From: Mobula birostris
Taxonomy: Eukaryota
NCBI RefSeq assembly: GCF_030028105.1
Contig: NC_092402.1
Span: forward strand, 33,154,843 to 33,218,842
DNA: 64,000 bases
Direction: 5' to 3'
Under the pieces are notes generated by a model. That model saw only the letters and a program-made list of their open reading frames with translations, did not search any database and was not told the origin of the DNA. The position numbers were made by a program, and so were the translations under genes. Of the stretch, positions 8,438 to 62,038 are shown piece by piece. The first letter of the stretch is position 1. Every line of letters begins with the position of its first letter.

Positions 8438-8735
8438 TGCCCCACCTCCCCCTCGTACCCCATCCGTTATTTATTTTTATACACAGATTCTTTCTCTCTC
8501 TCTCCTTTTTCTCCCTCTGTCCCTCTGACTATACCCCTTGCCCATCCTCTGTTTCTTTCCCCCCCCCCCTTGTCTTTCTTCCCGGGCCTCCTGTCCCATG
8601 ATCCTCTCATATCCCCTTTGCCAATCACCTGTCCAGCTCTTGGCTCCATCCCTCCCCCTCCTGTCTTCTCCTATCATTTTGGATCTCCCTCTCCCCCTCC
8701 CACTTTCAAATCTCTTACTCACTCTTCCTTCAGTT

Positions 8736-8771
8736 AGTCCTGACGAAGGGTCTCGGCCTGAAACGTCGACT
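8736..8771 (+). ncRNA. Minimal type-I hammerhead ribozyme with intact core
   Basis: agtc-CTGACGA-a-ggg(tctcgg)cct-GAAA-cg-TC-gact: stem I agtc/gact, stem II, palindromic ACGU stem III and GUC cleavage triplet. This matches the known PLE minimal hammerhead layout. Confidence 0.8.
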
Positions 8772-9179
8772 GTACCTCTTCCTAGAGATGTTGCCTGGCC
8801 TGCTGCATTCACCAGCAACTTTGATGTGTGTTGCTTGAATTTCCAGCATCTGCAGAATTCCTGTTGTTTCTGTAATTGTTCCCCTGCCTCCCACGGCCAT
8901 CTTGCAGTTATCCTAACCTCTGGAGCTTTGCTTTTAAGGCTCTGCCTGTGTTCAGGTAGGAAGAAGACAGCCAAATGATCCAATTTATCAAAATACGGTC
9001 TGGGCTAGGAACAACAGGCATTCCTTATCTTAGTACAGCAGTGGTCTAGTATATTGTAACCTCTGGTGCTACAAGATATATATGCTGTAATATATTGGTA
9101 CAATATTATATGACTGTATAAAGAAAGATTATTCAAAACAAAAAATGTCTGTGAATTTATTCTTTTTTGGCCTTTGCTG

Positions 9180-24240: not shown

Positions 24241-24402
24241 CCTATTCAAAAGAGTGTCACAACTGAGATCTGGCAAGGACAATTGAGTGAGATGAGTCAT
24301 TATTTGGTGAAGTTGCAATGCAAGTCTATTGCTATTAAGGAAACTTAAAATGACTTATCATGCCAGACATTGATCTATAGTATACCATCAGGTAGTCTTC
24401 CA

Positions 24403-24488
24403 TTCACAAACAAGAGAAAATCTGCAGATGCTGGAAATCCAAGCAACACACACAACGTGCTGTTGCTCCAGCATTTTGTATGTGCTGG
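24403..24488 (-). mobile_element. Miniature PLE-derived fold-back remnant
   Basis: PLE tail (aaaatctgcagatgctggaaat) plus a short inverted arm; imperfect TSD tcag(g/a)tagtctt(c/g)ca at 24388-24402 and 24489-24503. Confidence 0.6.
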
Positions 24489-25224
24489 TCAGATAGTCTT
24501 GCAGTGTTATACTGAGAATGGAGAAATTAGTGAAAGGAAATTGTATAAGGAGATTTCAGATATTTTTTCTCAACAGGCGAATTACCTGGATCACCTGGAT
24601 CAACAGGTGAATTACCAGCTTGAATGGGTCTTTTTGAGGAAGATGATCATGTGGAAAAATATATAAAGTAGCCTTATCACTTGCCAACAAGAAATGAAAA
24701 TGAATGACTTAAGGATGAAATTTTCTTTTTGAAGAATGAACAGATGGAAAAGCAATGACTGATGTCTGATTGGGTCATACCGAAAATGCTGTTTTTGAAA
24801 GAGTGGCACAATATTTTTAGAGATGAACAGAGACACAATGGAATACTCAGATCTGGCAAGGACAGGGGAGTGTATATTGTATTCAGCTGGCAACTCAGTC
24901 CCTGTTGAACAAGTCCTTAAATACACAACTCAGTGTTTTGATAGTGAAGACTATCTTGTTTGTACAGGTAAATTTTGACCTTGACTGTGCAACCTTCCAT
25001 GATAAACTGTTAAAAGACAGGAGGGCCTTACAGGTTTGTTTCTAAAGGAAAACACAATCCACTGGAGCAGGAGGGCAGTCTATTCGAAAGTGCTATAGAT
25101 ACTTCATTGCAAATATTTCTTTGTTTTGTTTTTCTTATTATTAATATCATTATGATTAGTTGAATATTTTAATGTTTTGATAACAACTGAGATGTTTCAA
25201 CTTTATTTCTGTTTTCCTTCATAC

Positions 25225-27589: not shown

Positions 27590-29300
27590 CAGACGTTTTA
27601 ACTATCGCATCAAATTATCGTTCAGTCCACGATCGGATAGGCTGCACAAGTACAAACATTTACTGTAAATCATGGCTTCCCGAGCACCCTGACAGCCGGC
27701 GCGATCTTTGACAATTTTCTTGATTTCGTGAGGTAATGAGTTAAATGTGAACAGCGGTGATCCGTCTGGGCGGCTTGAGACCTGCGAAGTGCGGAGAGTA
27801 TGTAATTGTGTCCGGAAGAGCAGTGTGCTCCGTGCGCAGGTTTGAAGGACAGGCGTGTACTGGGTGTGGAGGAGCTGGAGGGAGAGACGGCGAACTCAGA
27901 ATCACTGAGCAACTAACACTACCTTTGAAATAGACATGGCGCCTTGTGCTCCCCGTCCGTTTCAGCCTGGCGTTTACTTTCTCTTGTCAGCTGCCGTGTC
28001 GATCTCCTCTGCTTTTAACATCGATGTGACGAACCCGATCATTAAGAAGGGTCCAGCCGACAGCTACTTCGGATATTCGGTTGCTTTGCATCGACAGCTG
28101 AAAAATCAGGATCGCTACCTGTAAGTGCATTGTGGAGATCATAAGTGAGAGTGGAGCTAAGGTTTGCTCGTGTCTTTTACGGGACAGGGTAGTTTTGTTT
28201 TAATACAACAGGTGAAATGTGAAAACGAGAACGACCGGCGTAACTAGTCATCTGGTCGTTCAGCTTTAAAAGAAGAATTTTATTGCCTGCGGGCCGAATC
28301 ACCTCGGCTTTTATTAACTTTCATTATAACATAAAGGCGAGTAACATGTCCAAATCCGCTGGAGCAGAGCAGTCCTGGCTCGCGTTATAAATGAGTGGGG
28401 ATGAGTTTTATGCAATGAAATGTGCATGCATTGTTTTACTCAAATAAACCATTTGTTGCTCGTGATCGGAGCTGGAGACGTAAACTTGATTCAGCGGCAG
28501 CAGCAGATGGGTGGTGGGTCTGTTGCGAATTCCTTCAAGGTTGCTTCTACGTGTTTAAAACAAAACCCTTCAGCCCCACACAGGCGCCGCCAGTTTTAGT
28601 TTTAGTTTTGACAGAATGGTTAGATCTGAATTATACATCGACAGTTCTTTGTAAAACTTTTATTTATCCTCCCCCCCCCCACCCCCGGAGTTCCTTTCAA
28701 TTGTTACACATCGTACGGAGTCCTCTCGGGACGACCCGGATCACGCAGAAACATTTCAGGGCAGTTGGTGTTTCGTGGGAAAACACATCTTATGAATGTT
28801 GCTTTCACTTGAATAGCAGTTTACAGAGACGTAATAGGAACGAAAGAACATTTAAGACATGGGATTTCCCAATCAGAATTTGGAAAAACATGGGATTGCT
28901 TCTGTTAGTATTGAGGTTTCTGAACAATGTACATCATTTTACCGCAGAGCTCACAACCACTCTGCGGCTGATTCCAGTTTCTTTTGTAAGAGGGTGAAAT
29001 GTGTTGCATGCTGGTGCAGCCCCGAAACGGTTAACGAGACTGCGCCAACTCTCAGAGAAAGTAGAAGGAATTTTGTCTACCGCCCTGAGGAGCTCAATTT
29101 AACGTTCGCCCGGAGTACTTGGGGGGGGGGGGGGTTGCAGGTGAGCGCTGGTCACGGAGATCCATTGGACACCTGTAACTCAAGGTCAAATTTCCTCCGT
29201 GGTTGTGCGCACTCGAGCGCCGAACCCATTGTGATTGAACTTCACGCAACAGCTCCATTTTGCTTAAGCTGCGTCCTGCCATAATAAGATAAAGACCTTA
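27590..29300 (+). promoter_or_regulatory. CpG-enriched promoter/first-exon region of the integrin alpha gene
   Basis: CpG density is visibly higher than in the CpG-depleted flanks, and the region is repeat-free. An ETS-type CCGGAAG lies at 27812-27818. Confidence 0.65.
27936..28120 (+). CDS. itga3: Integrin alpha (laminin-binding group, best match alpha-3) coding exon 1: signal peptide and start of the beta-propeller
   Basis: gacATGg Kozak context; hydrophobic signal peptide; mature N-terminus FNID...FGYSVALHRQ...RYL (cf. ITGA3 FNLD..FGYSVALHRQTERQQRYL); phase-2 donor CT|gtaagt at 28121. ITGA7/ITGA6 are not fully excluded. Confidence 0.82.
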
Positions 29301-42239: not shown

Positions 42240-42725
42240 TAAACACAAAGGATCCTGCAGATGCTGGAAATCCAGAGCAACACACACAAAATGCTGTCGG
42301 ATCTCAGTAGATCAGGCAGATTCTATGGAACTGAATAAACAGTCAATATCTTGGGCTGAGACCCTTCATTAGGACTGGAAAGGAAGGAAGAGGAAGCCAG
42401 GGTAAGAAGGTGAGCAGGAGGGGAGGAGAACAAGCTAAAAAGTGATAGATAAAGCCAAGTGGATGGGAGAGGGTGCTCTTGATCTCCTCGACAACTTTCA
42501 ATTCCCTGGCCCTCGTCCCCTCATTTTCACCATCGATGATCAGTCCCTATACATTTCTATTTCCCATCAACTTCGCTTCCAACTTCCACCCTGTCCATAG
42601 ATTCACTTGGTCCATTTCTTACACTTCACCCCTTTCCTCAATAATTCTGTCTCCATCACTGGAGACAAACTGTCTGCCAATATCTTTTATAAACCCACTG
42701 GTTCCTATGGCCGATATTCCCTCTG
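42240..42725. mobile_element. Old PLE with an inverted 3' terminus (minus) joined to RT fragments (plus)
   Basis: 42240-42470 is a reversed PLE terminus; the plus strand encodes NFQFPGPRPLIFT.D.QSLY and INFASNFHPVHRFTWSIS (PLE RT motifs). Confidence 0.75.
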
Positions 42726-46375: not shown

Positions 46376-46952
46376 GTATGGCCATCTGAAATGTATTCAT
46401 TTATAAAGTTAAAATTCTTCTACTTGGTTGCAAGTAAGAACTCCACAGGCAGCATGCGTGTGATAACTGTAGTGGCTGGAGCCAAGTATTTTTAGTACTT
46501 GCAGCTCAATGATAATCAAGTCTGGTTAGTTGTTCAGATGGACAGTGAACTGTCTGTCTGAACAAGTATGACATTAAAATCAACCACAGCTTCAGGCTGC
46601 TGTATCAGTTGTTTCACCACATGTCCGCTGTTTGTGTTGCCACATTCTTTCCTCAGAAGGTCTCTTACTTTGTGAAAGAAAGTTGTAGCAAGAAAGTGCT
46701 CTTGTTTATTTTATTTCATTCAGTTTGAATTATTGATAACTCTTTCAATACCATAGACATAGATACTTAAGCGGTTAGCATTTTAAGGGTATTATTTATA
46801 ACTACGTCTGCTATACTGAGCAATCCAGTACTTGACCACTAATTAGCTTATTAACTAGAGTAATGTCCTGGGCACTGCAAGATGAATCTGCTCTGCAGTT
46901 GTGAGAGTGATGCACACATTGCAAGGGCACAAACTGCTGCTTCATGGCTTAA

Positions 46953-47163
46953 GCAACACATGCAAAATGCTGGAGCAATACAACAGATCAGGCAGCATTT
47001 ATGGAGGAGAATAGACAATTGACATTTCAGGCCAAGGCTCTTCATCTCGGCTTGAAATGTCAACTGTTTATCTCTCTCCATAGATGCTGGATGACCTGCT
47101 GAGTTTCGCCAGTATTTTGTATGTGTTGCTCAAGGTTTTCAAAGCTGCAGAATCTCTTGTGTT
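46953..47163 (+). mobile_element. PLE-derived fold-back mini-element
   Basis: Imperfect ~85-bp inverted arms plus a PLE tail; TSD cttcatggcttaa (46940-46952) / cctcatggtttaa (47164-47176). Confidence 0.75.
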
Positions 47164-49559: not shown

Positions 49560-50296
49560 TGGTCCTTCCAGGTGAGGCGACACTTCACCTGTGAGTCGGC
49601 TGGGGTGATATATTGCGTCCGGTGCTCCCGATGTGGCCTTCTATATATTGGCGAGACCCGACGCAGACTGGGAGATCGTTTCGCTGAACACCTACGCTCT
49701 GTCCGCCAGAGAAAGCAGGATCTCCCAGTGGCCACACATTTTAATTCCACATTCCATTCCCATTCTGATATGTCTATCCACGGCCTCCTCTACTGTAAAG
49801 ATGAAGCCACACTCAGGATGGAGGAACAACACCTTATATTCCGTCTGGGTAGCCTCCAACCTGATGGCATGAACATTGACTTCTGTAACTTCCGCTAATG
49901 TCCCACCTCCCCCTCGTACCCCATCCGTTATTTATTTATATACACAGATTCTTTCTCTCTCTCTCCTTTTTCTCCCTCTGTCCCTTTGACTATACCCCTT
50001 GCCCATCCTCTGGGTTTTTCCCCCCTCCCCCTTTTCTTTCTCCCTGGGCCTCCTGTCTCATGATCCTCTCATATCCCCTTTGCCAATCACCTGTCCAGCT
50101 CTTAGCTCCATCCCTCCCCCTCCTGTCTTCTCCTATCATTTTGGATCTCCCCCCTCCCCCTCCCACTTTCAAATCTCTTACTAGCTCTTCCTTCAGTTAG
50201 TCCTGATGAAGGGTCTCGGCCCAAAACGTCGACTGTACCTCTTCCTAGAGATGCTGCCTGGCCTGCTGCGTTCTCCAGCAACTTTGATGTGTGTTG
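49560..50296 (+). mobile_element. 5'-truncated PLE (GIY-YIG ORF 49572-49898) with 14-bp TSD
   Basis: Near-identical to 8101-8839; TSD cttgatggttttga at 49546-49559 and 50297-50310. Confidence 0.92.
50199..50234 (+). ncRNA. Minimal hammerhead motif with mutated core (GAAA to AAAA)
   Basis: agtc-CTGATGA-a-ggg(tctcgg)ccc-AAAA-cg-TC-gact. Confidence 0.7.
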
Positions 50297-50474
50297 CTTG
50301 ATGGTTTTGACCTGTTTTTCTTTCTATAGTTGCTGTCTAACCTGAGTATCTCCAGTATTTCCTGTTTATATTTCAAATATCCAGCCAGTGAAGTTATAAA
50401 ATTCTGATTTCCAGTTGATTAGCACCCCAACCATTGCCCTCAACATTTATTTCCTTTATCATGGCTGCAGTTGA

Positions 50475-54075: not shown

Positions 54076-54567
54076 CACAGCCTACCCTGTATCTCCTGCT
54101 CAGTAATGGCTTCCTAATCACAAAGCCGTCCATTAACCATTCCCGTTTGTTATCCCCCACTGAGCTAATTTTGTATCCAACTATCACTCTCCCTTGTGTC
54201 CCACTGAGCAGCCTGTATGTTGTAGCAGCAATTGGAGCTGTAATTGGCTTAATATCTAGCATTAATGTTGCATTTCCTCTGCAATATTTGTGAGGTACTG
54301 TACATGGCAAAAATTTATCACACTTACCTCTTGGATCTTGAACAATGCAAAAGCAGAATGGAATTGTACCACTACATCAACGTGGAAATCTATTGCCTTT
54401 CTCTTGTGATTGAGTTGACTCACCAAAATATTGTAAGTGGCATCAGTTCTGGAATTTCAGGTATTATCTTGGGCCAAACAGTGACGACAATAAATGCAGT
54501 CATCATTGATGGCTTGAAGACAAATAGAAGCACGAACTAATTAAGAGCTACAAATCCCAACAACCAT

Positions 54568-54824
54568 AAACTCTTCTCAGGCTTCCAGCTGGGTCCAGGT
54601 GTCAATTTTAACCTATGCTGTGATTCAAAGTAACGAATATAGCGAGGAACTTCCTCCTCATAGAGGTAAGTGAAAAAGGGTCTTATCTCTATGGGAAGGA
54701 AGTCCACTGCAATATTCCTTTCTTCGAATCATTATGTAGGTTAAAATTGACACCTGGACCCGACTGGAAGCCCAAAAAGTGTTTATGCATCTTATACACC
54801 GGGAAAGCACTAGAACCTTTTTCT
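54568..54824 (+). mobile_element. Fold-back mini-element (second lineage, probably PLE-derived) with 10-bp TSD
   Basis: Inverted arms include 54580-54615 / 54737-54772 (34/36 identical); ~38-nt unpaired tail; TSD caacaaccat at 54558-54567 and 54825-54834. Confidence 0.8.
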
Positions 54825-54899: not shown

Positions 54900-55848
54900 A
54901 GATTCCCCTCATGTTCCCCTGAAGAGATGACCTCTGGTTATACTCCCAACCAACCTCAGTGGAAGAAACACATACAAAATGCTGGTGGAACACAGCAGGC
55001 CAGACAGCATCCATAGGAAGAAGCACAGTCGATGTTTCAGGCCGAGACCTTCATCAGGACTAATGAAGGGTCTCAGCCTAAAACGTCGACTGTGCTTCTT
55101 CCTATGGATGCTGTCTGGCCTGCTGCATTCCACCAGCATTTTGTGTGCGTTGCTTGAATTTCCAGCATCTGCAGATTTCCTCGTGTCTCAGTGGAAGAAG
55201 CCTGCTTGCATTTACCCTATCTATACCCCTCATAATTTTGTATATTTCCATCAAAGCTTCTCTCAATCATCTACATTCTAAAGAATGCAGTCCTAACCCA
55301 TTCAATCTTTCCTTCTAGCTCAGGTCCTCCAGATCCAGCAACTCTTTCAAACTTATTTACATCTTTTCTGTAGGTAGGTGACCAAAACTGCACATAATAC
55401 TCCAATTTAGGCCTCACCATCAACTTATACAACTTCAATGTATCATCCCATCTTCTGTACTCAATATTTGATTTATGAAGGCTAATGTGCCAAAAGCTTT
55501 CTTTATGACTCTATCTACCTATGATGCGACTTTCAATGAATTATGGATCTGTATTCCCAGATCCTTTTGTTCTACCGCTCTCCTCAGTGCCCTACCACTC
55601 ACTGTGTTAGATCTATCCTGGTTGGTCCGACCGAAGCGCAACACCTTGCACTTGTCGGCATTAAATTTCATTTTTCATTTTTCAGCCCATTTTCCAGCTG
55701 ATGCAGATCCCTCTGCAAGCCATGATAGACTTCCTCACTCTCCACTACACTCCCAGTGTTGGTGTCATCCGCAAATTTGCTGATCCAGTTAACCACATTA
55801 TCATCCAGATCATTGATATAGATGATAAACAACAAAGAACCCAGCACC
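54900..55848 (-). mobile_element. CR1 3' fragment interrupted by a fold-back element
   Basis: Reverse complement of CR1 RT end/C-terminus (gtcatccgcaaa = FADD; accaaaactgcac = VQFW). Confidence 0.85.
54968..55186 (+). mobile_element. PLE-derived fold-back mini-element with two head-to-head hammerhead motifs and 13-bp TSD
   Basis: Arms ~54968-55055 and ~55063-55151 are near-perfect reverse complements; tail gcttgaatttccagcatctgcagatttcctcgtgt; TSD ctcagtggaagaa at 54955-54967 and 55187-55199. Confidence 0.9.
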
Positions 55849-61440: not shown

Positions 61441-61851
61441 ATCATAAGCACTCACTGCATTCAAAAAAAATCTTTCTTCAGATTCCTCCCTATATACTAA
61501 TTTATTTTTGTTTACAACTCAGTGCTTTAATAATGGAAACGTTAAGCTTTGAGTACCTGTAAAGCTTTTCTAAAATCTTTTCGGACATTCACACACACAC
61601 ATATATAGCACATCTGCAGCCCACACATCATCATTGTACTCTGTAACTACAACTTCTCTTTAAACCACAACGCCACAGTAGCCTGCTGCTTCTGTTAACA
61701 ATGTCCTTATAGCAGTGGAAACAAGGGAAATATCAACATTGAGAAGGTTCTTTCTTCAATTAAACAAATGGCTCCAAGATTTCAGAGGTGATTTATTGTA
61801 TATTGAGGGCATTTCCATAAAGAAGCACTTTCTGGTAAAATAATACTCTTC

Positions 61852-62038
61852 ACACAAATGCTGGAGGAACTCAGCGGGTCAAGCAACATCTATGGACCCT
61901 TCATCAGGTCTCGGCCTGAAACATCAAACATGTACAGTATAGTATTCCTCGCCCCAGATACTATCTGACCTGCTGAGTTCTTCCAACATTTTGTGTGTGT
62001 TATTCTGGATTGTCATCATTGCAGAATCTCTTGTGTTT
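61852..62038 (+). mobile_element. Degenerate PLE-derived fold-back mini-element
   Basis: acacaaatgctggaggaactcagc / gctgagttcttccaacattttgtgtg arms, hammerhead remnant ggtctcggcctgaaac and tail tgcagaatctcttgtgt. Confidence 0.7.

Follow-up and report, generated by a model that had tools for sequence, protein, structure and literature searches.

A hammerhead-bearing fold-back in an integrin-alpha intron of Mobula birostris is a likely dead-end product of Penelope-like element integration

Insertions of Penelope-like elements (PLEs) typically consist of an inverted, truncated copy of the element together with a tail of 30-40 bp, according to the available portions of PMC8557442. The corresponding portions of PMC3846280 describe an inverted pLTR, a 31-bp tail and a target-site duplication (TSD) of 8-10 bp, and interpret head-to-head junctions as the result of self-priming. 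For Poseidon of Anolis (PAc), the accessible text of PMC11167929 reports that the protein nicks and extends both target strands in vitro, that two internal start sites for reverse transcription bound the tail, and that ribozyme cleavage is dispensable. Hammerhead motifs also occur in such elements as dual motifs on opposite strands, 100-700 bp apart (PMC4209133, in the part available). Non-LTR retrozymes, as outlined in the accessible part of bioRxiv 10.64898/2026.07.22.740005, are tandem head-to-tail repeats that carry two hammerheads on the same strand.

The window analyzed here is a stretch of 64,000 nucleotides from M. birostris (NC_092402.1, positions 33,154,843 to 33,218,842 of the forward strand), and the insert of interest lies in it within intron 1 of a plus-strand integrin-alpha gene. 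A first-pass annotation of the window had described a 219-bp insertion with a perfect 13-bp TSD, and the description stands: the 219-bp insert is bounded by a perfect 13-bp direct repeat (54955-54967 and 55187-55199), and in 11 of 13 matches to paralogous LINE-like copies the reconstructed empty site can be aligned through the insertion junction. The repeat is a true TSD because the 13-mer occurs once at these empty sites. Between the repeats are two pLTR arms arranged head to head. With parent positions numbered so that 0 is the last base of the tail, stem I of the hammerhead begins at -131 and the expected cleavage site lies just after -100. The inverted, tail-less arm (54968-55064, minus strand) spans parent positions from about -34 to -133/-134, and the tail-bearing arm (55063-55186, plus strand) spans -124 to 0, with a hammerhead that is 5'-truncated and mutated at G12. 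The junction (55063-55064) is read here as a 2-nt overlap between the arms; it can also be read as a commoner overlap at 55060-55061 plus one substitution. The inverted segments 54963-55049 and 55069-55155 are 87 nt long with 91% complementarity, and the predicted RNA fold of the insert has a z-score of -18.5, with none of 200 shuffled sequences as stable. The one-sided PLE tail (55151/55156-55186, plus strand) is unpaired and 31-36 nt long, in keeping with the earlier estimate of about 35 nt.

The inverted arm carries a complete minimal type-I hammerhead motif (55027-55061, minus strand, antisense to the host pre-mRNA), the sequence of which reads as had been claimed; its stem II is short by one base and its stem III palindrome is changed from ACGU to ACAU. 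It is the one complete member of the two head-to-head hammerheads that had been proposed, since in the plus arm (region 55062-55091) stem I is without its 5' strand and G12 is replaced by A. The two motifs sit on opposite strands, so that in any single transcript the sense motif would lie next to an antisense copy of itself. A hammerhead fold imposed on the minus strand is predicted to be 43 kcal/mol less stable than the hairpin (-128.6 versus -171.6), and the hairpin predicted for the integrin pre-mRNA comprises helices 20 and 45 bp long. The idea that either strand would yield a hairpin inside the integrin pre-mRNA has to be dropped, as only the plus strand is that pre-mRNA. With the plus arm truncated and bearing G12A, and with the minus-arm motif buried in the hairpin, this copy is predicted to fail as an active hammerhead, and the ribozyme in the insert would be an inactive passenger. 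Dimer cleavage has reportedly been studied by Lunse et al. A search of Rfam with the insert found no hammerhead family and returned only sub-threshold models of miRNA precursors, which reflect the hairpin; hairpins of this type could mislead annotation through such models or be filed as MITEs. In its minimal type-I form, 4-bp stem I, extra base before stem II and palindromic stem III, the motif resembles the metazoan PLE hammerheads in the available portion of PMC4209133. It differs from the dual motifs of that paper in that the two copies abut, one of them is truncated and stem II has 3 bp.

The host gene is represented in the window by its first coding exon (27936-28118, plus strand), which has a signal-peptide-like start and an FGYSV motif and is followed at 28118 by GTAAGT. 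The next integrin-like exon was found about 30 kb beyond the end of the window, and later exons past the window carry LLVGAP and GFFKR. Pfam gave no match for the 61-amino-acid exon 1, nor did it match as integrin exons any of ten window ORFs that had been guessed from motifs. The DNA into which the insert integrated is an old fragment of a LINE, presumably of the CR1 type (54927-55300, minus strand, with loosely defined ends), that is 74% identical to the 3' end of a copy with a long RT ORF in locus L137. No preference for CR1 targets was seen: CR1-like DNA starts 2 of 120 3' flanks as against 5.8% coverage of 264 kb, a comparison that used a single reference copy and is insensitive, for it overlooked the present locus, which does sit in a CR1-like fragment. 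A separate inverted repeat of 106 nt (54565-54787; 79%, 11-nt spacer) is located 170 bp upstream of the insert; it is unlike the PLE and is possibly a MITE.

By its sequence, the insert is assigned to the pLTR of a very abundant PLE that encodes a reverse transcriptase (RT) and a GIY-YIG endonuclease (EN). The earlier assignment to a PLE is borne out by longer copies, which run into an ORF for both domains. The parent has a single ORF, RT first and GIY-YIG at the C-terminus. Its RT match (PF00078, E=2.1e-06, 28 bits) is slightly below the Pfam cut-off of 29.6, its GIY-YIG match is above the cut-off, and every copy of the ORF that was read has stops or frameshifts. Translations from loci L091 and L139 contain a CxxxKCxxC motif between RT and EN. 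A Cys linker motif is described for both Neptune and Nematis in the available text of PMC8557442, and the motif points to a probable placement of the parent with one of these two. The motif also sets the parent apart from PAc as described in the accessible part of PMC11167929, and the two differ further in that the PAc ORF begins inside the hammerhead whereas the ORF here begins 41 bp past the tail. Partial tandems (L177, L187, L195, L196 and L199) have the order pLTR, hammerhead, tail and ORF, and the ATG is at that 41-bp distance in six of six tandem copies examined. The arms of the insert are thus copies of the pLTR, a segment that doubles as the 5' leader of the unit that follows; the first-pass annotation correctly recognized them as inverted PLE sequence, but its description of them solely as the 3' terminus was too narrow. 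The absence of coding sequence from the insert was confirmed for the parent ORF, which starts only past the tail.

The abundance of the parent is reflected in 2,417 exact genome matches to a 42-nt tail motif and 72,036 matches to a 19-nt half of the hammerhead, with no matches for the controls in either case. A descriptor of the family hammerhead gave 148 matches, in which stem I is fully paired in 84 and stem II in 124, and the core is intact in many copies; no compensatory double changes in the stems were seen among the common types of these matches. In the window, a 5'-truncated copy of the parent (49560-50301, plus strand) retains the GIY-YIG end of the ORF (PF01541, E=3.3e-05), the UTR and the hammerhead, with the tail absent. 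Its complete hammerhead core (50190-50301, plus strand) is sense in the integrin intron and outside any compact hairpin, and a second parent 3' end with a complete core is present at 8727-8862 on the plus strand. Other relatives in the window include an older, diverged fold-back of another subfamily (46951-47130, about 68% identical to the element, junction further 3'), an old, degraded fold-back with a tail (61851-62036), a very short tailed fold-back that ends short of the hammerhead (24400-24490) and an old lone arm (42255-42372).

The first-pass annotation had weighed two origins for the insert, a non-autonomous ribozyme-bearing hairpin retroelement or a stereotyped abortive product of PLE integration, and had proposed that loci be compared for a common fold-back apex. 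No common apex was found. In a tail-anchored sample, taken as an unbiased set from the first 90 of the 100 matches to the tail that were listed for contig C1, an inverted arm is adjacent at 40 loci. Of these, 29 are compact fold-backs (260 bp or shorter), and no two of the 29 have the same pair of ends. Our samples are small and come chiefly from contig C1, and the exact patterns used are biased toward young copies. Genome-wide, patterns spanning the junction identified at least 2,953 fold-backs, and a hand tally of 50 listed loci gave about 36 junction classes, the commonest with 9 of the 50 and that of this element with 1. Junctions do recur, which is the main argument for a family that propagates as a unit: the junction of this element has 217 exact matches in the genome. 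The recurrent junctions sit on microhomologies of 2-4 nt, however, and same-junction copies are spread over several subfamilies. Among 32 such copies (the first 12 listed plus 20 selected, partly for TGA variants), a hand count placed the tail on the left in 18, on the right in 13 and in a complex arrangement in one. Copying as a whole unit would maintain a single polarity, so the occurrence of one junction with both polarities argues against it.

Sequence relationships point the same way. None of 27 alignable same-junction copies, nor locus L011, belongs to the subfamily of this element (best identity 92%), whereas copies with other junctions reach 97.6%. No left-versus-right arm difference common to the 27 copies was seen, and in this copy four of the five differences between the arms are of the CpG type, with no A-to-G editing scar between them. 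The 30 best genome matches vary in junctions and ends, and most have their own TSD. The two best-matching relatives, L002 and L003, do belong to the subfamily of this element and have a junction of equal length, and a single substitution in their junction would give the one seen here. Because their junction class makes up about 6 of the 50 listed loci (hand tally), such a pair is to be expected among 30 score-ranked matches. A non-autonomous element would have a common internal junction and a fixed polarity among its copies, and the fold-backs have neither. We therefore regard a self-propagating hairpin family as very improbable; the varied junctions, both polarities and several subfamilies instead support the abortive-product alternative. 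In a separate case, loci L167 and L168, which lie on the same contig at a distance of 4 Mb, have nearly identical flanks and insert and are likely a segmental duplication.

The insert has the inverted 5'-truncated copy, the tail and the TSD of a PLE insertion unit, and is a minimal form of the published PLE insertion architecture rather than a new element. Like Pen2a_Av of Adineta vaga in the available portions of PMC3846280 and PMC8557442, it has a head-to-head inverted pLTR with an inverted arm of variable length. A one-sided tail of 31-36 nt and a TSD of 9-15 bp are likewise common to it and to the EN+ PLE insertions in those portions. The fold-backs differ from Pen2a_Av-type insertions, as far as these are described there, in that both halves are too short to leave an ORF. 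Non-LTR retrozymes (bioRxiv 10.64898/2026.07.22.740005, accessible part) are similar in being non-coding, hammerhead-bearing and related to pLTRs; the insert is not one of them, being head to head with one ribozyme per strand.

Across 72 elements, the two arms of the same fold-back match at 493 of 567 diagnostic cells (87%), compared with 54% (maximum 66%) for shuffled partners, and rare variants are common to both arms in 7 of 150 cases where 0.7 would be expected. Together these indicate that both arms come from one source subfamily; the sharing of rare variants fits one RNA or two alike and does not separate these. The outer ends of the inverted arms fall at -25 to -46 in 32 of 40 cases in the tail-anchored sample and match the two sites, one at each boundary of the tail, where reverse transcription starts in vitro in the available text of PMC11167929. 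In 24 of the 40 it is the tail-less arm that extends further 5', in 11 it falls short of the tailed arm and in 5 both extend equally far; in this element the tail-less arm reaches -134 and the tailed arm -124.

This asymmetry bears on the published reading of head-to-head PLE junctions as self-priming, in which either an antisense template (PMC3846280, available portions) or a single cDNA would fold back on itself and be resolved by the endonuclease, leaving the tail as a resolution product (PMC8557442, likewise). The subfamily and the few rare variants common to both arms would suit such an origin. Folding back of a cDNA, however, requires a tailed arm longer than its partner, and in this element, as in 24 of 40 cases, that arm is the shorter one; two priming events would be needed, as a self-folded cDNA cannot supply bases that were never copied. 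Filler bases are also frequent at the junctions, which otherwise include overlaps and blunt joins, and the template in vitro is sense RNA (PMC11167929, as far as available). Self-priming consequently appears improbable.

We think it likely that the insert consists of two short PLE pLTR copies placed head to head between TSDs by a single dead-end event, and that it is not itself mobile. The element endonuclease would nick both target strands 13 bp apart, and each nick would prime reverse transcription of sense RNA, one at the end of the tail and the other about 35 nt upstream. Both cDNAs would halt at the first base of the hammerhead or slightly inside it, the most likely reason being that the RNA begins there, and their 3' ends would then be trimmed and joined through the 2-nt microhomology, with the gaps filled. 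In LINE-1 twin priming, both target strands are primed and an inversion results, and retroviral strong-stop DNA is a short cDNA that ends at the 5' end of its template. The proposed events would work like both of these, and differ from LINE-1 twin priming in that both primers copy the same leader from two fixed sites, giving a palindrome and not an internal inversion.

The halt is suggested by the distribution of arm ends. Among the 61 tailed arms extending to -127 or beyond, 18 have their end in the 9 nt from -127 to -135, at the 5' edge of the ribozyme (17 is the safer count, as L058 is a BLAST over-extension). The end hazard is 0.033 per nt in this interval, compared with 0.008 at -103 to -126 and 0.004 at -136 to -200, and 10 of 25 inverted arms end in the peak as well. 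When a constant hazard was simulated, 18 ends in any 9-nt window occurred in 0 of 20,000 runs (mean maximum 8.3); counting any window allows for a bin chosen after inspection of the data. Inner ends peak at -129 to -131, and the -131 bin of one histogram (24 arms) holds about 11 arms from other subfamilies with differing upstream sequence; the statistic does not draw on that histogram. A hand tally of 100 further arms of a young subfamily gave 30 breaks in -99 to -151, 13-15 of them at -127 to -131, and about 70 arms that read through the peak site. Since the peak is present too in arms that directly abut target DNA or pieces of the ORF, it is not due to hairpin geometry. At four loci (L040, L054, L174 and L178), arms ending at the hammerhead edge are fused to differing internal ORF points of the same element, suggesting template jumps from that edge; at L178, the inverted arm is followed by a near-complete unit. 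Short duplications of the 5' part of the hammerhead, as if synthesis had restarted, are found at the junctions of L129, L131, L163, L169 and L005.

One might expect the stumps to be copies of ribozyme-cleaved RNA, given the intact hammerhead core in many of the 148 descriptor matches. There is no peak at the cleavage site: the interval from -96 to -102 holds the ends of only 2 of the 113 arms at risk, about 0.0025-0.004 per nt, which is the background level. Cleaved RNA as the source is rejected for this locus, in which both arms run past the cleavage site, and for the stumps generally we give it hardly any credence.

Run-off at the 5' end of the RNA is the interpretation of the peak that we lean toward, if only slightly. 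It is suggested by the end peak together with the location of the peak base inside a match to YYANWYY, a short motif which we take to be an initiator consensus. The ends form a shoulder on the 3' side of the peak and drop sharply on its 5' side, as might be expected if cDNAs were trimmed back from a fixed 5' end of the RNA. Alternatively, in the same dead-end product the peak could be a point at which RT stalls or switches, for example at splicing factors on an acceptor-like tract and AG or at the element's own protein bound to the ribozyme. A pyrimidine tract and CAG immediately before stem I are kept across several subfamilies whose sequences differ (L048, L055, L074, L110, L117, L143 and L202), and may represent a conserved splice acceptor or initiator. 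The available portions of PMC4209133 and PMC2377424 place the end of an intron at helix I in Penelope of D. virilis and its start site upstream of that intron. With this start site and the acceptor-like sequence in mind, the RNA need not start at the peak, and the fact that most arms run past the peak site is also in line with a stall. The shoulder and sharp drop, expected if the template has a fixed end and the cDNA is then trimmed, count against a stall, as does the lack of an apparent common upstream exon or GT donor at the junctions inspected, and we consider a stall or switch rather unlikely. Splicing to a common upstream exon was rejected as a candidate, as the inspected junctions have no sequence in common.

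If run-off is combined with twin priming, the fold-backs would be paired strong-stop-like cDNAs: a dimer of the PLE protein would prime both target strands on the 5' leader of a single RNA beginning with the first base of its hammerhead, and the two cDNAs that run off this end would be joined in head-to-head orientation. This more specific proposal is tentative, with a chance somewhat short of even. No account of fold-backs that lack an ORF and have arm ends peaking at the hammerhead, or of fold-backs as paired run-off cDNAs of a hammerhead-starting RNA, was found in the literature, in a search that was scant for subscription papers. The end peak at the 5' edge of the ribozyme is not described for the insertions in the available portions of PMC3846280 and PMC8557442, and the PAc work, in the accessible part of PMC11167929, dealt with priming in vitro and not with inverted products.

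As a single element the insert matters little, being a decayed stump in an intron and one among at least 2,953 similar fold-backs. Collectively, the fold-backs bear on how PLEs form their inverted repeats and tails, a question posed in the available portions of PMC8557442 and PMC11167929. Testable clues to PLE integration come from the arm asymmetry and the end peak, which make specific predictions for the existing in vitro system. If the paired-cDNA proposal is true, thousands of copies would map the start of the RNA and would give in vivo evidence for twin priming behind the inverted pLTRs.
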